DNA from: a virus
Lineage: Duplodnaviria; Heunggongvirae; Uroviricota; Caudoviricetes
Virus record (IMG/VR): IMGVR_UViG_644736364_000003
Length of the DNA: 46,137 nt
Reading direction: 5' to 3' (one strand)
In this document: positions 1-8,296 of the stretch, in pieces
How positions within the stretch are numbered: position 1 is the stretch's first letter
Layout of the letters: each line of letters opens with the position of its first letter
Program-made: the position numbers and the translations under genes
Notes under the pieces: generated by a model
Seen by the model: only the letters and a program-made list of their open reading frames with translations
Database searches by the model: none
What the model was told of the DNA's origin: nothing

Positions 1-1164
1 TTACGCCTTCTTTATATCCTCCATAATTCCACAGTGGGACATATTTGGGACATTATCACCAAAAATGTCGTCTATTTTCCTTGCATGCTCTGTCAAATGA
101 TTAGGCGCAAGGTGAGCATACCTACGAACCATTTCTATGGACTCCCATCCGCCCATTTCCTGAAGCACAGATAATGGGACGCCTGACTGGATCAGCCAGC
201 TTGCCCAGGTGTGTCTGAGGTCATGGAAACGGAAATCTTCAATTCCTGCACGACGACAAGCTGATAGCCATGATGTCTTGCTGTCGATGCGCATCTTCCT
301 GACCGCAGGCGTTGATGTTCCATCTGCTCGCTTAGCCGCCTTGGTATGTACAAACACCCATTTGTGATGCTTGCCTATTTGATCACGCAACACTTTACAG
401 GCGGTATCGTTCAGCGCCACACCAATGGCGCGGTTTGATTTGCTCTCTTCTGGATTCACCCAGGCAACTCGTCGCTGCATGTCGATTTGTTGCCATTCCA
501 GATTTATGATGTTCGACTTTCTCAGACCAGTTGCCAGCGCAAACTTGACGACAGATTTCAGTGGTTCGGGGCACTCATCAATAAGGCGTTTTGCTTCCTC
601 CTTTTCCAGCCATCTGACTCGCTTGTTTCTGACCGCTGGTATCTTGATGACAGGCGCTTTTTCCAGCCACTTCCAGTCGCGTTCTGCAGCACGGAGAATG
701 GCCTTTATCATGGCAAGATGCTTTGCCTTTGTCTGAGTTGATACTGGCTTTGGTTCATAAACAGGCGGTTCTTTACCTTTCCTGATGGCGGCCTGAACTT
801 TCTGTTTCCATATTTCTTTCGTCTTTCTGTTATGCATTCTGCTTACAGCAGAGTAAATCTTTGCCTCCGAGATATCTTTAAGCCTTATACCCTCAAAATG
901 TTCAAGCCAGAACTCAATCCGGCTTTTATCTGAATCGAGAGATTTTTTATCAGCTTTTTCCTCAAGCCATCTTAGGCAGGCCTCTTCAAAAGTGACATCA
1001 GGTAAATCCCCTAGCTTTTCTACTCGCCAGAGTTCTGCTTTTCGCTTGTCGTGCAACTCCTGAGCTTGCCGCTTGTCCTTTGTGCCAAGAGATTCCTTAA
1101 TTCGTTTCCCGCCCGGGAGCGAATACGAGGCATACCATATTTCATTTCTGCGGAAGAGTGACAT
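1..1164 (-). CDS. int: Tyrosine site-specific integrase (lambda/P22 family)
   Basis: 387 aa; C-terminal catalytic region [11 protein letters not shown]...[19 protein letters not shown] typical of phage tyrosine recombinases; N-terminus resembles P22-type Int as recalled. Confidence 0.9.
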
Positions 1165-1391
1165 TTTCTTTCCTCTGTTATGCCATCACCCGCGCTCACC
1201 TGGACAGTATGCAGCGGAGACTGAAGCGCCGCAATGCAAGCTTGCCGTGTTGTGAGGTAAGGAGATTTTGGCTTGGTTGGATCTTTACGTGTTGCCTGTA
1301 GGCGGCCTGTTCGTATCCAGTTGGTGGCGGTTGGTCTGGATATCTTAAGAAACTGACAGGCCTCATCGAGTGTGAGGCTGTATGGCTCCAT
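1020..1391 (-). CDS. xis: Excisionase-like HTH protein (AlpA/Xis family)
   Basis: Start [31 protein letters not shown] with GAGGTG RBS; sits directly upstream of int; 3' end overlaps int by about 145 nt. Confidence 0.6.
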
Positions 1392-1696
1392 TATTTCACC
1401 TCTTGCTGTGTCATTGTTGAAAAATGGATACCAGCTCGTTGCTGCCAGACGATCCAACCGAGAGTCATATCCCATGCCATGTATTCGTTATCGCCGTTTT
1501 TTACTCTCCGACGATCTACTAAGTCACCGAAACGCTTTTCCATGAATAATTCATAGGCTTCGCGTTCATCTGGCTCTACTTCCAGAGATACGAGTGCGAT
1601 TTCATAAGCACGGCGCTCAATATCGTCTCGAACCTCTAGGCTGCTGATTCGTTCTTTGATTTCTTTAATCAGTTCTTTATTGGTAAATGTGGTCAT
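1391..1696 (-). CDS. Hypothetical early protein (YfdT-like by position and length)
   Basis: 101-aa ORF in leftward early operon, tightly packed with neighbours. Confidence 0.5.
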   Translation of the reverse strand: MTTFTNKELIKEIKERISSLEVRDDIERRAYEIALVSLEVEPDEREAYELFMEKRFGDLVDRRRVKNGDNEYMAWDMTLGWIVWQQRAGIHFSTMTQQEVK

Positions 1697-2058
1697 TATG
1701 CTCCAGCCTCCGGTGCTTTTGGCATTACTGCCCAGTGAGTGATATTGACGTTTTCAAGGTCCCCGACCTGAAATGTCCACTGCCATTCTCCGGTTTCTTT
1801 TTGTCCCCAGGTGTACCAGAGAGAACGCCAGCCAATCAGCCAGCCTTCTCCATTAGCATCAAATAACAGAACACTTTCATTTGCTGGTGGCAGTTCAGCT
1901 GACACTGGTATTATTTTGTTTTCCAGTGCCGCACATTTAGCTTCAAGCGCGTCGAATTTACGTACCAGGTACTCAGCATTTGTTTCGTTCACTTTCAGAT
2001 CTCGCGGTACACATTTCCCGCGAAGAAACCCTTCCATTTCGAAAACATTCATGCGCAT
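1696..2058 (-). CDS. Hypothetical early protein, DUF551-like C-terminus (YfdS-like)
   Basis: 120 aa; Trp-rich C-terminal motif GWLIGWRSLWYTWGQ...WQWTF; operon context. Confidence 0.5.
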   Translation of the reverse strand: MRMNVFEMEGFLRGKCVPRDLKVNETNAEYLVRKFDALEAKCAALENKIIPVSAELPPANESVLLFDANGEGWLIGWRSLWYTWGQKETGEWQWTFQVGDLENVNITHWAVMPKAPEAGA

Positions 2059-2585
2059 TTGCGTAACTCCGATAAATCGTTAAAACGTTCCATAAACATC
2101 CCGTAGGCATGACCCGGTGCCAGTGGAATCACGTTGAACATCTCTGTTGCCGGGATGCCTTCCAGTACAGGCCAGAAAGAGCCATCATCAAGCCCGAGAT
2201 CGCGGCGTTCGGTTGCCAGCATGATGAGATCGGCATATTTCACGGGTGTACTCATAACTGGGGGTAACCCGTATTTCTCACGGATTACGGCGTCTATTTT
2301 TTCTTCCATCCGTTTATAGTCAGGAAGAAGGCGTTTCAGTGGTGCGGGAATGTCCTGGCAATACGCTTCTGTTGCATCATGCATTAACGCTTCAAAAGCA
2401 AATTCCTGCGGCACCAGCTGGCTGCAAAGAACCGCATGTTGGGCGACGCTGTAGAAGTGCGAAAGATGACCGGCAAAGCGACAGATATTTGAAAGGGAAA
2501 CCGCGATATCGTTAATATCGATGTCGTCTTTATTTATCTTGTCATAATAAAAATGCTTCCCGGAAAAAGTTTTAATAAATGACAT
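2049..2585 (-). CDS. yfdR: HD-domain 5'-deoxynucleotidase-like protein (YfdR-like)
   Basis: 178 aa from MSFIKTF with GGAGAA RBS; His/Asp-containing motifs (HLSHFYSVAQHAV, ALMHDATE) consistent with HD phosphohydrolase. Confidence 0.6.
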   Translation of the reverse strand: MSFIKTFSGKHFYYDKINKDDIDINDIAVSLSNICRFAGHLSHFYSVAQHAVLCSQLVPQEFAFEALMHDATEAYCQDIPAPLKRLLPDYKRMEEKIDAVIREKYGLPPVMSTPVKYADLIMLATERRDLGLDDGSFWPVLEGIPATEMFNVIPLAPGHAYGMFMERFNDLSELRKCA

Positions 2586-2712
2586 TTTGTTCTCCACGTA
2601 TATGCACTGCACCGCGCTGAATTCTGGTAAAAGGAAGCCCTCACCATCCGGTGATTATTGAGTTAATTACGTTTCCATAAATGCCCCCGCAGGGGCATTT
2701 GCAGTAATGAAA

Positions 2713-3537
2713 TCAGGCGGTGAAAGTACCAATAAAGGTTTCTACTTTGCTGTCCTTGAATTTCTCAACAAGCAGATCACGAAATTCGTTAGCCATTTCC
2801 TCCTGCACTGCTTCCAGCTGAATAATGCGCAGAACCAGTACAGGACGATCGCCAGTGAGAATGCTGAGGCGTAATTTAAACGGACGTTCTTTCAGGCCTT
2901 CAAACGGAACGCATTTAAATTCAAATGCCACTGGCATAATGTCTTTGGTTTTCGCTTCGACAGACTCCATCAGGGAGCGTTTGCCGCTGAAGTCATTGTC
3001 TTCAAAATCAGCGGTCTGGTTTGCTTCAATCGTGATTTTACGGACTGCCGCAGCTGCTTTTGTTGCCTGAATAGCGTCACCATTAGCATCAAAGCCCACA
3101 AGGTAGTCGGCCCAGTCTTCAATCCATTCTGCCAGTGACTTCTGGGAGTTACGCTCGCCATTAACAGACAACAGAGCAGAGAACGGTGCTGTCTTTTTCA
3201 GTTTGAGAGTGGCGGTGTTATCTGCGTGACCTGGTTCATCAATAGTACCCAGATTAAGCACACTGACAGCACGCATATTATCAGCATCGATAAAGCAGCG
3301 GGTGCCTTCATCTGCAAGATCTTTAGAATAACGGGTAAAGTCATCGATGCTGGCAGTGGAAAGCGCACCACGGAAACGGAAGCGATTTAAATTAAATTTT
3401 TCCAGATCATGAATGCGGAAATTCTCAGGCAATGCCACAGCATCGGCACCAATCTTACTGATAATTTCATTAACACCCTGAGCAGAAATAAGGGCATGGA
3501 TTTGATTAATTGCGGTTGCGTCTAAGTTCTGAGACAT
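2713..3537 (-). CDS. yfdQ: YfdQ-like phage protein (DUF2303 family)
   Basis: 274 aa ORF with GAGGA RBS; length and position match the CPS-53 yfdQ homologue as recalled. Confidence 0.5.
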
Positions 3538-3602
3538 AATAAGTCCTCACTATATAAAGATATTCAGTGATGAGATAAATAATCAGTTTATTAAAAACGA
3601 TA

Positions 3603-3965
3603 TTAACGACCAGCTGCGCGGAGTTTTCCGTCAGGTTCACCGGCAAGAGTCAGTAATTGTCCCTGGTCTTCCTGCAGAATAGTCAGGCGACCACCGCGAT
3701 TGACATACATCGGCGTTTCGGTGGTGTCTTCTTCGGAAATTTTCCCGCGGTTAGTTGGGCGAACATATGAGAGTTTGTGTTTGATTTTCACACGGTTCTC
3801 ATCAAACGGTTCGATTTCCAGATTGAGTGAGACCTTCCCTTTGGTTTTCGTGTTCATCACACCGGAAGCGACTTCACTTAGAACTGCGCCGATTTTTGTT
3901 TCAAATACGCCGCCGTCCAGCTCCCCGATAAATGCCTGCACATCAGTACTGCGTTCACTAGCCAT
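3603..3965 (-). CDS. Hypothetical early protein (YfdP-like); first gene of leftward operon
   Basis: 120 aa from internal Met MASERSTDVQ with AGGAG RBS; the longer track ORF 3603..4151 lacks an RBS at its start. Confidence 0.5.
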   Translation of the reverse strand: MASERSTDVQAFIGELDGGVFETKIGAVLSEVASGVMNTKTKGKVSLNLEIEPFDENRVKIKHKLSYVRPTNRGKISEEDTTETPMYVNRGGRLTILQEDQGQLLTLAGEPDGKLRAAGR

Positions 3966-4611
3966 TTTGCTGCTCCTCATCATATCGACCCTGCAATGTC
4001 GGTTAGTTTCTCCACAAAACAGAGAAGAACACCTGCGGTGGTAGCCGCCCGGATGGATTGGGTTATGAGCCCGTCGTCCGATGATGTTCTTCTCTGTTTT
4101 GTAAAAAGAGCGGTACCAGCCGGAAGCAAGTGTACAAACTGGTACCGCCAAAGCAGTGGCTGTTGTGGTGACCGGTGCTGATCTCCGGCTTGCGGTTATT
4201 TCAGACTCTCACGGGCATTTAATTGCCCCGCCGAACAGCTCTTTTCCGCAATAGCTGCAATGTCTTTCGCGCATCAGCCTGCGCATTCACCACAACGCTG
4301 AGAGCACTTAGCCAGTTACGGCACCACACTTTGTCGCGGTTCCATAAATGCCCTCATCGTTGCACCCTGGTCTCTTCCCAGGCGTCAAACCGAATCGCCA
4401 CGCTGGTTAGGCGTCTTATCAGCATCCTCATTGACTTGCACATTCCGGCTATCTGGTTTGTTTGCCCGAGCAAGGAGTGGATTGTCCCCTTTAACGTCCC
4501 CAGACCGCTAACGACGCATGTGCCATACGCCGTGTTACAACCAAATTTTGTTAGTACCTTGTTTGTAGGTCTGGAGAGAAAGATAAAATGAAGTTGCGCA
4601 TTATGCAAGTG

Positions 4612-4634
4612 TTTTATTGCGAGATAAGCAATTT
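4612..4634. promoter_or_regulatory. Putative left operator (OL-like) repressor-binding site
   Basis: Motif TTTATTGCGAGATAAGCAAT nearly identical to a motif in the cI-cro intergenic region. Confidence 0.35.
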
Positions 4635-4687
4635 GGTGGGTAATGAAAAGCCACCTTCTGGTGGCTAATTGATGTTGAGGTAGGGGG

Positions 4688-5380
4688 TTAATTGTGTCGC
4701 TTAAGGGTCTGTGACTGACTGATTAAGACCTTTCCAAAGACCATAAACCGGTGTTCGTTTTCGCTGGTAATTCCCCATTCGCGGTAAATCTGATTATCAG
4801 AAATTACCAGCAGTTTATCAGGTATCATTTGCAGTCGTTTGACGTAAATTTTATCATCAAAACCAAATACATATATACCATCCCCATCAAACTGATTGAT
4901 ACTGATATCAACGAAGATGAGATCTCCTGGCTCAATGGTTGGACACATACTGTCCCCACGAACGTTGATAACTTTAATGTGATTTGCTGGTCGTCCACCA
5001 AACATCGATACAGCATTATCAGTTCTGTATTCAATGGCATGAATCACATCAATGACATCACCGCCCTGGATAAGGCCATTTCCCGCACTGGCACTGACAT
5101 CCAGCATTTCAATACGGAATACATCCTTCACCTGCGTAACATCCTCACTAATACTGTTTTTACATACAGTATTACTTTTGAGGTCTGAGGTAAAGAGATC
5201 AGCAATATCAACACCTAAGCTCCTGGCAATATTACTCAGGGCTTGTTCAGTGAATTGTTTCTGCTTACCTGTTTCGAGGCGCGAGATATTCGCCGCATCC
5301 ACTCCTATTGCTTCAGCGAGATCGGCGATTTTCATGTTCTTCGCCTGGCGAAGTTGTCTGACTCGATTTCCTATGTTCAT
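4688..5380 (-). CDS. cI: Prophage repressor, HTH-XRE plus S24 (LexA-like) peptidase domain
   Basis: 230 aa; N-terminal HTH (IADLAEAIGVDAANISRLETG), Ala-Gly cleavage site (ASAGNG), GDSM serine motif and downstream Lys (YVKRL). Confidence 0.85.
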   Translation of the reverse strand: MNIGNRVRQLRQAKNMKIADLAEAIGVDAANISRLETGKQKQFTEQALSNIARSLGVDIADLFTSDLKSNTVCKNSISEDVTQVKDVFRIEMLDVSASAGNGLIQGGDVIDVIHAIEYRTDNAVSMFGGRPANHIKVINVRGDSMCPTIEPGDLIFVDISINQFDGDGIYVFGFDDKIYVKRLQMIPDKLLVISDNQIYREWGITSENEHRFMVFGKVLISQSQTLKRHN

Positions 5381-5394
5381 GCGTTTATTACATT

Positions 5395-5450
5395 TCTTTA
5401 TTGCGCGTTAAGCAAATCAACTTGCGCAAAATATTTGCGTGAAATAATAT
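5395..5450. promoter_or_regulatory. Putative right operator/promoter region (OR; divergent cI and cro promoters)
   Basis: Repeated TTGCG/CGCAA inverted-repeat motifs (TTTATTGCGCGTTAAGCAAAT; CGCAAAATATTTGCG) in the 97-bp cI-cro spacer. Confidence 0.4.
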
Positions 5451-5477
5451 GCTCATCACGCAATATGTGGAGGTTAT

Positions 5478-5738
5478 ATGCAATCACCATTACGGAATGT
5501 GCGTAAGGCGCACGGATTTACTTTGCAGCATGTTGCTGCGGGCGTTCAGGTCAATCCAGCGACGCTGAGTCGTATTGAAAGACTGGAACAAATTCCATCT
5601 ATCGATCTTGCAGAACGTCTGGCCAATTTTTTTAAGGGTGAAATCAGCGAAATGCAGATTCTTTATCCGGCACGTTTTCAATCTAGCCAAAACCAGAATG
5701 GGTTTAAACCACAGGAACAGGAGGTAAGCCGTGGGTAA
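5478..5738 (+). CDS. cro: Cro-like HTH regulator
   Basis: 86 aa; HTH (FTLQHVAAGVQVNPATLSRIE); GGAGG RBS; divergent from cI. Confidence 0.7.
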   Translation: MQSPLRNVRKAHGFTLQHVAAGVQVNPATLSRIERLEQIPSIDLAERLANFFKGEISEMQILYPARFQSSQNQNGFKPQEQEVSRG

Positions 5739-6288
5739 GCATCATTGGAAAGTGGAAAAACAACCTGAGTGGTACGTGAAAGCTGTCAGAAAAACTATCG
5801 CGGCATTGCCTGGGGGTTACGCTGAAGCTGCTGACTGGCTGGATGTAACAGAGAACGCTTTATTCAACCGCCTTCGTGCAGATGGCGATCAGATTTTCCC
5901 GCTGGGATGGGCAATGGTTTTACAGCGCGCGGCTGGCACTCACTACATTGCGGATGCTGTCGCACAATCTGCTGGTGGGGTGTTCGTATCGCTTCCTGAA
6001 ATTGAGGAAGTAGAGAACGCCGATATAAACCAGCGCCTGCTGGAAGTCATCGAACAGATCGGGAATTACTCAAGGCAGATTCGTTCGGCAATCGAAGATG
6101 GGGTCGTGGAGCCACACGAGCAGACAGCAATTAATGATGAGTTGTATCTGTCAATTTCGAAGCTCCAGGAGCATGCAGCACTGGTCTACAAAATCTTTTG
6201 CGCTCCAGAAAAGAGTGACGCCCGCGAGTGTGCAGCTCCGGGCGTCGTGGCGTCGATTGCTTCTGGTTGTGGAGAAACTAACGCATGA
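5731..6288 (+). CDS. CII-like / YdaT-family regulatory protein (putative)
   Basis: 185 aa, GTG start after AGGAGG; position immediately after cro; family assignment from memory only. Confidence 0.4.
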   Translation: MGKHHWKVEKQPEWYVKAVRKTIAALPGGYAEAADWLDVTENALFNRLRADGDQIFPLGWAMVLQRAAGTHYIADAVAQSAGGVFVSLPEIEEVENADINQRLLEVIEQIGNYSRQIRSAIEDGVVEPHEQTAINDELYLSISKLQEHAALVYKIFCAPEKSDARECAAPGVVASIASGCGETNA

Positions 6289-6613
6289 ACAGTTTAACGG
6301 CAAATAACCGTTTGTCGCAACAGCTGGTGGTCAGCGTCGCTGAACACCTGTTGTTACGGCATGAATGCAGATTACCAAATCACCTGGCTGTAAGTAACCA
6401 CAGAGAACTTTACCTGACTGTGGGGGGCGAGTTGTGCAGGAACTTAACCGCTGGTTTCGTGACGGAAGAGGACTTTATGTTCATGTTATTCGTTGGGAGC
6501 CAGAAACACAGCGCGTTATCTATCTTCGCAAAGACTACCAGCATGAGTGCTTTAGTCCTTTGTGGAAATTCAGGCGTGATTTTGTTGAGTGTGAAGGACC
6601 ACCAGCACATTGA
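6285..6613 (+). pseudogene. Small gene apparently frameshifted at a G6 homopolymer (about 6422-6427); intact form would be about 110 aa
   Basis: ATG overlaps upstream stop (ATGA coupling); frame 0 open to 6430, then a protein-like ORF continues in the mod-2 frame (VVQELNRWFRDGRGLYVHVIRWEPETQRVIYLRKDYQHECFSPLWKFRRDFVECEGPPAH) to a stop near 6613. Confidence 0.3.
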
Positions 6614-6721
6614 TTCTGCCATTCCGGGACGTTACACTGTTCAGGCACCTTATAAAGCGGGTGTCGGGATTGGCGTCCTGGAATTGCATACGGCGACAAT
6701 TGGCGCGTTAGCGTCTTTTTT
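6610..6721 (+). promoter_or_regulatory. Leader element copy 1: sigma70-like promoter (TTGATT-17-TACACT) followed by intrinsic terminator hairpin (GGCGC-GTTA-GCGTC-T6); candidate short RNA/attenuator
   Basis: Promoter-like hexamers with 17-nt spacer; hairpin plus T-tract about 75 nt downstream; same architecture conserved in copy 2. Confidence 0.35.
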
Positions 6722-6887
6722 GTTGCTACAACTCAGCTATACCCAAATTATGGTGGGCTGGGTGGGGGCACCGAAAGGTGCGCCGGTTTCCGTATGCGCC
6801 GGTTACGCCAACCCTGCTCAGTTCACCACCAGCGAAATTGGCGTTTCCGGTGGTGGAAGTTATCCATTGCATACGGAGGCTGCCATC

Positions 6888-7433
6888 ATGGCTACGATCC
6901 CAACCCTCACTCAACCTGAAATTGCCATCGTTGATGGTCAGGCTGTTACTTCATCCCTGGCTGTTGCCAACTTCTTCTCCAAACGTCATGACGATGTACT
7001 GAAAAAGATCCGCACGCTTGAATGTTCCGCATCATTCACTGCCCGCAATTTTTCGGTGAGTGATTACACCGATTGCACAGGCCGCAAACTACCTTGCTAT
7101 CAAATAACCCGCGACGGCTTTGCGTTTCTTGCTATGGGTTTCACGGGTAAACGTGCTGCCCAGTTCAAAGAGGCATACATCAATGCCTTTAACCAGATGG
7201 AGAAACAGCTTTCAAAGCCCGCTGTACCGAGCGACGTTGCACATAACGCCAGCGTTCTCTATTCCTACATTTCATCAATTCATCAGGTCTGGCTGCAGCA
7301 GCTTTATCCTATGTTGGCAAAAGCCGAATCTCCGCTGGCTGTTAGCTTGTATGACTATATTAATGATGCTTCGGCGCTGGCCTGCCTCATAAATTTGTCG
7401 CTGAATCCTTCAGAGGTAAGGGGGCGTAAATGA
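6888..7433 (+). CDS. Rha-like phage regulatory protein, copy 1
   Basis: 181 aa from MATIPTL with GGAGG RBS; N-terminal motif (VDGQAVTSSLAVANFF...ITRDGFAFLAMGFTGKRAAQFKEAYINAFNQME) typical of Rha/pRha family. Confidence 0.7.
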   Translation: MATIPTLTQPEIAIVDGQAVTSSLAVANFFSKRHDDVLKKIRTLECSASFTARNFSVSDYTDCTGRKLPCYQITRDGFAFLAMGFTGKRAAQFKEAYINAFNQMEKQLSKPAVPSDVAHNASVLYSYISSIHQVWLQQLYPMLAKAESPLAVSLYDYINDASALACLINLSLNPSEVRGRK

Positions 7434-7475
7434 TCCGGAATATTTTCAAACTGTTTACCAATCGCCACCAGCATA

Positions 7476-7587
7476 TTGATTCTGCAATTCCGGGACGTTA
7501 CACTGTTCAGGCACCTTATAAAGCGGGTGCCGGGATTGGCGTCCTGAAATTCGCACATGCGCATAACCGCGCTTCAGCGGTTTTTTT
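7476..7587 (+). promoter_or_regulatory. Leader element copy 2: promoter-like TTGATT-17-TACACT plus terminator hairpin (ACCGC-GCTTCA-GCGGT-T7)
   Basis: Same arrangement as copy 1; terminator stem differs in sequence but keeps pairing (compensatory changes). Confidence 0.35.
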
Positions 7588-7750
7588 GCGCACGTTTCCT
7601 CACATCCAAATTATGGTGGGGCGTGCAGGGGCATCGAAAGATGCGCCGGGGTCATGTGCGACCGGTTACGCCAACCCTGTACGTCTCACCACCTCTGTGA
7701 TTGGCGTCCCATGTGGTGAGTTTTCAAAATTCGCACATGAGGATGTCACT

Positions 7751-8296
7751 ATGGCAACCACCCCTACCCAAACTCACCCTAAAATTGATGTTATCCATGG
7801 GAAGGCTGTTACCTCTTCTTTGGCCGTTGCCGAATATTTCTGCAAGCAGCACAAAAACGTTATTCAAAAAATCCAGACGCTTGAGTGCTCTGTTGAATTC
7901 ACTGAGCTGAATTTTCAGCCCAGTGATTACACCGATTGCACAGGCCGCAAACTCCCTTGTTACCAAATCACCCGCGACGGTTTTGCGTTTCTTGCCATGG
8001 GCTTCACGGGGAAACGTGCTGCCCGGTTCAAAGAGGCATACATCAATGCCTTTAACCAGATGGAGAAACAGCTTTCAAATCCCTCTGTACTGAGCGACGT
8101 TGCACATAACGCCAGCGTTCTCTATTCCTACATTTCATCAATTCATCAGGTCTGGCTGCAGCAGCTTTATCCTATGTTGGCAAAAGCCGAATCTCCGCTG
8201 GCTGTTAGCTTGTATGACTATATTAATGATGCTTCGGCGCTGGCCTGCCTCATAAATTTGTCGCTGAATCCTTCAGAGGTAAGGGGGCGTAAATGA
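7751..8296 (+). CDS. Rha-like phage regulatory protein, copy 2
   Basis: 181 aa from MATTPTQ; paralogue of copy 1 with near-identical C-terminal half. Confidence 0.7.
   Translation: MATTPTQTHPKIDVIHGKAVTSSLAVAEYFCKQHKNVIQKIQTLECSVEFTELNFQPSDYTDCTGRKLPCYQITRDGFAFLAMGFTGKRAARFKEAYINAFNQMEKQLSNPSVLSDVAHNASVLYSYISSIHQVWLQQLYPMLAKAESPLAVSLYDYINDASALACLINLSLNPSEVRGRK

Follow-up and report, generated by a model that had tools for sequence, protein, structure and literature searches.

The window analysed in this work is a 46,137-nt stretch of viral DNA (IMG/VR record IMGVR_UViG_644736364_000003, Caudoviricetes), whose left end is the early region of a lambdoid prophage and includes a gene for an S24-type repressor, cI, divergent from cro. 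A 19-bp motif occurs twice in it, once beyond the 3' end of cI and once in the cI-cro spacer, and we consider it highly probable that these copies are, respectively, the second site of the left operator (OL2) and the site of the right operator (OR) proximal to the cI promoter pRM in a lambdoid cI/Cro immunity switch. The initial annotation had proposed that OR and OL sites bound by the repressor are located at these two places, with the leftward promoter pL near position 4600. The OR/OL interpretation is supported by dyads predicted at fixed positions of OR, and as a pair past the cI terminator, in about 25 relatives.

The repeated motif and the dyad at its core

The search of the whole window for the motif TTTATTGCGNNNTAAGCAA, i.e. 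TTTATTGCG-N3-TAAGCAA, identified exact matches at 4613-4631 (TTTATTGCGAGATAAGCAA) and 5397-5415 (TTTATTGCGCGTTAAGCAA) and no further copy in the 46-kb window, even with up to 3 mismatches. Both copies are thus where they had been reported: the left one ends 56 bp past the cI stop codon (4688), and the right one lies inside the 97-bp spacer between cI and cro (5381-5477). We likewise located the TTGCGC/GCGCAA repeats said to occur nearby, at 4594-4599 and 5401-5406 and as the palindrome TTGCGCAA at 5422-5429. The bare repeat is weak evidence taken alone, because a repeated masked word of the same 9-N3-7 form is found in 30% of Markov-simulated 46-kb sequences (mean 0.41 pairs); in shuffled sequences, two matches with 3 mismatches allowed were reached in 11 cases out of 100. 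The dyad core TTGC-N7-GCAA occurs 7 times in the window versus 1.68 expected, with at least 7 copies in none of 100 shuffles, and three of the seven copies flank cI (4594-4608, 4617-4631 and 5401-5415).

The microdiversity of near-identical phages was studied in 42 distinct OL sequences, taken from 80 viral contigs with cI at least 99% identical and from phage records (the scan of viral contigs returned only such near-identical cI genes, which are unsuited to deep footprinting). Invariant in all 42 variants are TTGC at 4594-4597, TGCAA at 4604-4608, TTGCG at 4617-4621, GCA at 4628-4630 and the block 4577-4589, and the last A of the right-hand dyad differs in a single variant. The variable positions are 4599-4603 and 4622-4627, together with the spacer between the two dyads and the DNA to the right of the second one. 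Position 4627 is A in 2 and T in 38 of the 42 variants, and therefore the exact identity of the two 19-mers is lineage-specific. Given the invariance of the half-sites and the rarity of the A at 4627, the functional unit appears to be the 15-bp dyad TTGCG-N5-NGCAA and not the 19-mer, although the copies described in the initial annotation are real. The spacer between the OL dyads contains a polymorphic 1-bp indel (4611/4612; extra T in 26 of the 42 variants), by which the centre-to-centre distance becomes 24 bp versus 23 bp in the window, and which suggests that the phasing of the operators tolerates ±1 bp. In OR, the changes among variants are confined to the centres of the sites and the positions between them. 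Both copies of the motif appear to be under visible purifying selection.

A symmetrised 17-column position weight matrix (PWM), trained only on the OR sites designated A and C (see below) of relatives with cI at most 76% identical, ranked as the top three of ~46,000 window positions the dyads at 5401-5415 (score: 17.0), 5449-5463 (score: 16.1) and 4617-4631 (score: 15.8). Simulated windows contained on average 0.21 matches with a score of at least 15.8, and three such matches occurred in 0 of 300. The dyad at 4594-4608 obtained a score of 11.9 (rank 8 in the window). The remaining matches (7120, 7983, 7722 and 20955, scores: 12.3-12.4; 8651, score: 11.7, just under the cut-off of 11.9) were rejected as operators, as they are at the chance level (1.26 matches expected per window at a score of at least 11.9).

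Predicted operators and putative promoters at both ends of cI

The relatives of the cI region were collected by scanning one genome per species, which gave 24 loci with cI relatives 96% to 32% identical, from Shigella, Citrobacter, Kluyvera, Klebsiella, Buttiauxella, Pantoea, Mixta, Rosenbergiella, Proteus, Serratia and other genera; this set was complemented with Klebsiella phage Kp4874-4 (71%) and Escherichia phage Eeyore (68%). The layout of the dyads is held in ~25 relatives, from Citrobacter to Serratia, with cI 54-96% identical and the recognition helix ANISRLETGKQK kept, and the pattern (A/S/G)N(I/V)SR(L/V)ETGKQK describes the helix conserved across the relatives. The OR/OL zones of these loci contain 16.4 dyads per kb, versus 0.31 per kb elsewhere in them (a 53-fold difference). 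TTGC-N7-GCAA is present in nearly all loci that encode the (A/S/G)N(I/V)SR(L/V)ETGKQK helix; e14 YmfK, PhiR5_1 and the Acinetobacter locus L110, which have another helix-turn-helix (HTH) domain and other repeats, lack it in their operator regions. The sequence of the predicted operators tracks the DNA-binding domain of the repressor, and this relation is the basis of heteroimmunity.

Among 22 distinct OR sequences of this family no indels were found from the cI ATG to site C (site A is at offset 23 from the ATG in 21 of them and is shifted by a 1-nt insertion in one), and the conservation peaks in five blocks: ATTACA (5387-5392), TTGCG..GCAAA (site A), ACTTGCGCAA, TAAYAT and ATGC..ACGCAA (site C), with the centres of A and C and the DNA between the sites freely variable. 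The predicted OR site A (OR3-like), TTGCGCGTTAAGCAA at 5401-5415, is the core of the right 19-mer and the best PWM match in the window. On the minus strand, the right half of this site (5410-5415) reads TTGCTT and corresponds to the -35 element of pRM; the -10 hexamer TGTAAT (5392-5387, minus strand) follows after 17 nt and is conserved as ATTACA at a fixed offset in the 22 sequences. The -10 hexamer lies only 6 nt upstream of the cI ATG, which implies a leaderless cI mRNA with a putative start at ~5380; the ATG is not preceded by a Shine-Dalgarno sequence. The centre of site A falls at -28 of the cI start, the same geometry as that of OL1 at pL (see below). The only call of a consensus promoter scan inside OR, TCCACA-16-TATTAT on the minus strand, was rejected as pRM: its -35 element is the reverse complement of the region of the cro Shine-Dalgarno sequence and is unconserved, in contrast to ATTACA at 5387-5392.

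The middle element of OR, B, is the invariant block ACTTGCGCAA (5420-5429), the most highly conserved one in the spacer, and comprises one consensus half-site and the -35 element of the rightward promoter pR, TTGCGC (5422-5427). The pR -10 hexamer TAATAT (5445-5450, plus strand) follows after 17 nt and appears in the family as TAAYAT at a fixed offset, in which the A at position 2 and the T at position 6 hardly ever change; transcription into cro would start at ~5457. The predicted OR site C (OR1-like), ATGCTCATCACGCAA (reverse complement: TTGCGTGATGAGCAT) at 5449-5463, is the second-best PWM match in the window and overlaps the pR start and the end of the pR -10 hexamer. Nearly all family sequences have a site at offset 71, in which ACGCAA hardly varies, and the distance of 48 bp between the centres of A and C is conserved. 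According to our own count in the OR alignment, the right half of B matches the consensus at 3 of 4 positions in about half of the relatives, at all 4 in none and at 0 of 4 in the window; instead, CGCAA-N5-TTGCG (5425-5439), an everted repeat whose centre varies, is retained in the lineage of the window. We also considered the palindrome CGCAAAATATTTGCG at 5425 as a full middle operator and dismissed it, as it had no site-level score. The list of sites in the initial annotation needs extension on these points, since OL1 (4594-4608) was only hinted at there, site C lies partly beyond the stretch 4590-5450 to which it referred, and the middle element of OR is a half-site only.

On the other side of cI, the repressor transcript is predicted to end at an intrinsic terminator, detected by a terminator scan at 4649-4666 (minus strand; AGCCACC-AGAA-GGTGGCT followed by TTTTC), with the cI stop codon on one side and OL2 on the other; it is annotated as putative rho-independent in phage SfII. 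The predicted OL2, TTGCGAGATAAGCAA at 4617-4631, is the core of the left 19-mer and the third-best PWM match in the window, and the predicted OL1, TTGCGCATTATGCAA at 4594-4608, matches TTGC-N7-GCAA with invariant half-sites. The right half of OL1 (4608-4603, TTGCAT on the minus strand) corresponds to the -35 element of pL, separated by 17 nt from the -10 hexamer TATCTT (4585-4580, minus strand), the latter located within the block 4577-4589 that is invariant among the 42 OL variants. This conserved putative leftward promoter is located just to the left of 4600, close to the position proposed for it; leftward transcription would start at ~4573, with the centre of OL1 at about -28. Among the relatives, two dyads 22-24 bp apart are present 41-66 bp past the cI stop codon in 20 of 25 loci, most of those with a two-site OL also have a -10-like (A/T)ATAA element at a fixed distance from OL1, and a G+C-rich hairpin with a T-run separates cI from the OL dyads in most of them, with stems of differing sequence. 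The assignments of pL, pRM and pR rest on conservation, by which all three can be regarded as putative promoters.

An additional dyad is located inside cro (codons 8-12), ~50 bp downstream of site C. In the window it is represented by the degenerate sequence GTGCGTAAGGCGCAC at 5499-5513 (PWM score: 2.2), versus a full operator match in most relatives, with scores of 11-21 in Kp4874-4, Eeyore and loci L091, L095, L104 and L105. The codons that form the site in the relatives are Leu TTG in 15 of 16 cases and Ser TCG in 11 of 11 (background: 10% for each), and the Arg and Lys codons in its centre vary at their third positions; the site is held by codon choice in these relatives. The lineage of the window seems to be losing it. 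The relatives noted for this site are L084, L085, L091, L095, L104 and L105, and the changes seen in the lineage of the window are Leu->Val, Ser->Ala and Gln->His.

About 600 nt (3966-4572) separate the putative pL start from the first recognisable leftward gene, a yfdP-like one (phrog_204). This segment gave no Pfam or PHROG match and contains no convincing open reading frame (ORF); its small ORFs have no counterpart in Pfam or PHROGs, and the plus-strand ORFs annotated there in phage mEp460 look spurious. The variation of the pL leader among close relatives is too small for a test of coding potential, and the part around 4171-4280 is replaced or deleted in many of them. Just downstream of pL, prophages of differing immunity types (SfII, e14, Kluyvera, Pantoea; in our numbering of loci L001:1443-1468, L087:2385-2410, L091:2317-2342, L096:2326-2351 and L112, which is e14 of E. 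coli K-12, 2147-2172) share a conserved 26-mer, GGCTACTTCGTGGGCGTCCTGCCTGT, which is absent from the window. It may be a leader RNA element.

The proposed switch and its alternatives

cI (4688-5380, minus strand) encodes a protein of 230 aa with an N-terminal HTH_3 domain (PF01381, 1e-10) and a C-terminal S24 autopeptidase domain (PF00717, 6e-19). The cleavage site Ala99-Gly100 and the residues Ser144 (GDSM) and Lys181 (VKRL) are invariant in an alignment of four family members. The nearest structure in the Protein Data Bank to the C-terminal domain is UmuD, with GDSM and KRL aligned, and the nearest solved structure to the N-terminal domain (residues 2-60) is 1sq8, a derivative of the 434 repressor (E-value 2e-4). 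The protein combines an HTH domain with an S24 autopeptidase that carries the Ala-Gly site and the Ser/Lys dyad, as in lambdoid repressors. The organisation of the region is also lambdoid: cI and cro are divergent, with several dyads over pR and pRM in their 97-bp spacer (a full third site was not found there), and a second cluster with the same consensus is predicted to overlap a leftward promoter beyond cI, in the way of lambdoid OL/pL.

The start of cI has been annotated differently in related phages, namely at the internal Met16 (5335) in mEp460 and Stx2a_1447, giving 215 aa, and at 5380 in SfII, giving 230 aa. We prefer the 230-aa form as the probable one, because the family conserves residues 1-15, and the HTH_3 domain is matched by Pfam from residue 7 onwards. 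A complete HTH_3 domain needs this longer form.

We propose that the 15-bp dyads are recognised by the repressor through its 434-type HTH domain, acting as a dimer. On OL1, where it would cover the -35 element and spacer of pL, the repressor would shut off leftward early transcription, with OL1 and OL2 together silencing pL. At site C, probably with the help of cooperative contacts at B, it would silence pR, and at site A, i.e. over the -35 element and spacer of pRM, it would restrict its own expression. Self-cleavage at Ala99-Gly100, stimulated by RecA and carried out by the Ser144/Lys181 dyad, would then release pL, pR and pRM and induce the prophage. During lytic growth these sites are expected to be used by Cro. 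Manual inspection shows a resemblance of its recognition helix, PATLSRIE, to AANISRLE of cI, and the putative specificity shared by the two proteins rests on this comparison and on the common HTH_3 fold. The present data show the sites, with their placement and conservation, and the protein domains, whereas we infer binding, the order of occupancy, cooperativity, looping between OL and OR over ~820 bp and the exact transcription starts.

Several observations weigh against the switch as proposed. Scanning for consensus promoters missed all three of the promoters, whose hexamers match the consensus at 8 (pL), 8 (pRM) and 7 (pR) of 12 positions, which makes all three weak by consensus. The window contains no full 15-bp middle operator (registers 5415, 5422, 5425 and 5435 obtain scores from -38.7 to +3.1), and therefore a lambda-like OR with three sites is not demonstrated. 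Site A, which by analogy to lambda OR3 should be a weak autoregulatory site, has the best matrix score, for which reason the analogy with lambda may fail in the order of occupancy. BLASTP comparison of the N-terminal domain of cI with Cro yielded no significant alignment. The relatives are not phylogenetically independent, and the searchable literature offers no binding, transcription-start or expression data for this immunity type.

It is improbable in our opinion that the dyads are bound by another regulator of the module, i.e. by Cro alone or by the CP76-type CII/YmfL protein, for instance as activator sites of an establishment promoter. The half-site TTGC is the tetramer of lambda CII, and a CII-like gene follows cro; however, lambda CII uses direct TTGC-N6-TTGC repeats at the -35 region, whereas the dyads are inverted and have the spacing N7, and the only direct TTGC...TTGC pair (5422, 5435) has the spacing N9. 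Moreover, the CII encoded here (PF06892) is unrelated to lambda CII, the dyads overlap the -35 elements or the starts of pL, pR and pRM, which are repressing positions, and they go together with cI proteins that have the ANISRLETGKQK helix, being absent from the regions of e14 YmfK, PhiR5_1 and L110 with their other HTH domains. Binding of Cro to the same sites is very probable, but it forms a part of the cI/Cro switch and not a rival to it.

Even less probable is that the 19-mer reflects an architecture shared by two promoters, in which case OL2 and site A would be alike because a -35 element with its A/T-rich spacer was duplicated locally or copied by gene conversion. pL is overlapped by OL1 and not by OL2, and the dyad symmetry of two half-sites is retained in site C and in the OL sites, although only one half can serve as a -35 element; both halves are invariant and the centres variable, and promoter function alone needs no dyad. 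These features contrast with those on which such an explanation could draw, namely the same layout of pL and pRM (right half-site as -35 element, 17 nt, -10 hexamer), the position of the T-rich 5' flank of the 19-mer (TTTA) in the pRM spacer and the lineage-specific identity at 4627 (2 of 42 variants). The least credible explanation is that the repeat is a functionless chance match. It could be based on the frequencies of such words in simulated and shuffled sequences given above (30%, and 11 of 100), but both copies adjoin the ends of the repressor gene, are internally symmetric, are recovered by a matrix derived from distant relatives, are conserved in position across genera and appear to be under visible purifying selection, by which the chance explanation is effectively refuted. 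We favour the repressor operators of a cI/Cro switch.

Relation to known switches, distribution and genomic neighbourhood

The lambda switch is similar to the one proposed here in having an autocleavable S24 repressor with an HTH domain and a small Cro, encoded divergently from a spacer of ~100 bp, similar dyads over pR and pRM and a second cluster over pL beyond cI, and a leaderless pRM mRNA (suggested here by the position of the -10 hexamer). In lambda the operators are 17 bp long, OL has three sites, OL and OR are ~2.4 kb apart and the cI mRNA transcribed from pRM is leaderless. In contrast, the predicted operators of the window are 15 bp long and of another sequence, OL has two sites, OR has two full sites and a conserved half-site, and the rex genes are missing, hence the distance of ~820 bp between OL and OR; furthermore, the N-terminal domain of the repressor is of the 434 type, CII is of the CP76/YmfL type and no N gene can be recognised. 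We put forward only tentatively, and rather doubt, that the switch functions differently from that of lambda, with a two-operator OR and a crippled middle palindrome (TTGCGCAA, 8 bp), an architecture shared by pRM and pL (operator at -28) and an extra operator inside cro. The full operator inside cro of the relatives, ~50 bp downstream of the pR start, could act as a roadblock, as an anti-virulence element like that of HK022 or as an anchor for looping.

The 434 and P22 c2 repressors resemble cI in the 434-type HTH_3 domain and in their short dyads with conserved arms of 4-5 bp and an unconserved centre. In 434 the operators have the form ACAA-N6-TTGT (14 bp), whereas the arms here are TTGC/GCAA around an odd 7-bp centre (15 bp). 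The recognition helix of 434 contains the residues QQSIEQ (QQAIEQ in the solved derivative 1sq8), whereas that of cI reads AANISR. The domain type is thus the same as in 434, with a weak similarity at the level of the fold only, and the operator specificity is not that of 434.

CI of HK022 shares with cI a homologous C-terminal domain (43% identity over residues 19-228). However, its N-terminal domain is lambda-like, and the operators were therefore taken as unrelated. OL and OR of HK022 are ~700 bp apart and their looping has been demonstrated, and an extra CI operator downstream of OR contributes to immunity (PMC8053113). The cro-internal dyad of the relatives could be comparable to this extra operator, which is located ~300 bp downstream of OR, whereas the candidate here is 50 bp past site C and is degenerate in the window. 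As sources of transferable operator data we rejected HK022 cI, with only the C-terminal domain shared, e14 YmfK/YmfT, with an unrelated HTH domain and GTACC-type repeats (its neighbour YmfL shares its name with the cII of the window), and a study of the RacR operator, which concerns a different repressor (PMC9638921).

Phage 933W has a lambdoid switch that is carried by Shiga-toxin phages, and the module of the window is likewise found in Stx2a and Stx2k phages, whereas the sequences of repressor and operators differ. Koudelka et al. are said to have reported in 2004 that OL of 933W has only two sites. The N-terminal domain of the 933W repressor is HK022-like, and operator affinities together with the repressor level set the threshold of Stx induction (review: PMC3202840).

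The OL-cI-OR module (4570-5480) is carried by 1039 of 5426 complete E. coli genomes (19%), with 80-100% identity and in up to 3 copies per genome, and also by mEp460, SfII and the phages converting to Stx2a and Stx2k. cI is 99% identical to its counterpart in mEp460 and 96% identical to that in SfII, and a phage "C2 protein" matches it at 42% identity; the identity of the cI-cro region is 99% with mEp460, 96-98.6% with Stx2a phages (Stx2a_1447, WGPS2) and Stx2k phages, and 90% with Shigella phage SfII. In the searchable literature we found no operator study for mEp460, SfII, e14/ymfK or the Stx phages with this repressor, nor for the half-site strings; in the SfIV/SfII genome paper cI and Cro were noted, and N, cII and cIII were unrecognised (PMC3851460). 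The architecture is textbook lambdoid, and represents one more specificity and no new mechanism. The practical value is modest, i.e. an operator consensus, TTGCG-N5-NGCAA, and a promoter map for a very common immunity type, which can be used to predict homo- and heteroimmunity among these prophages, to aid in designing reporters as well as virulent or clear mutants and to study the induction threshold in Stx phages with this repressor.

Downstream of OR, cro (5478-5738, plus strand) encodes an 86-aa HTH_3 protein (PF01381, 5.8e-10) and is followed by a gene for CII of the CP76/YmfL type (5731-6288; PF06892, according to Pfam). Further to the right there are two tandem modules (6632-7433 and 7498-8296) similar to the P1 immI antirepressor module, each with an isrK-like RNA (6645-6721 and 7511-7587) and a C4 antisense RNA (6746-6833 and 7609-7696, with weak a1/b1 target matches); the ORFs at 6285-7433 and 7430-8296 encode proteins with Ash and Rha domains. 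These modules are probably a second layer of immunity control that acts on cI.

To the left of cI, homologues of yfdT, S, R, Q and P, similar to CPS-53, are located on the minus strand between cI and the gene for a P22-type integrase (1-1164, minus strand). The left arm (1-3965) illustrates the mosaic origin of the prophage: the P22-like integrase and Xis are accompanied there by homologues of the genes yfdP, Q, R, S and T of E. coli K-12 CPS-53/KplE1, whose proteins include a DUF2303 member and an HD-domain protein.

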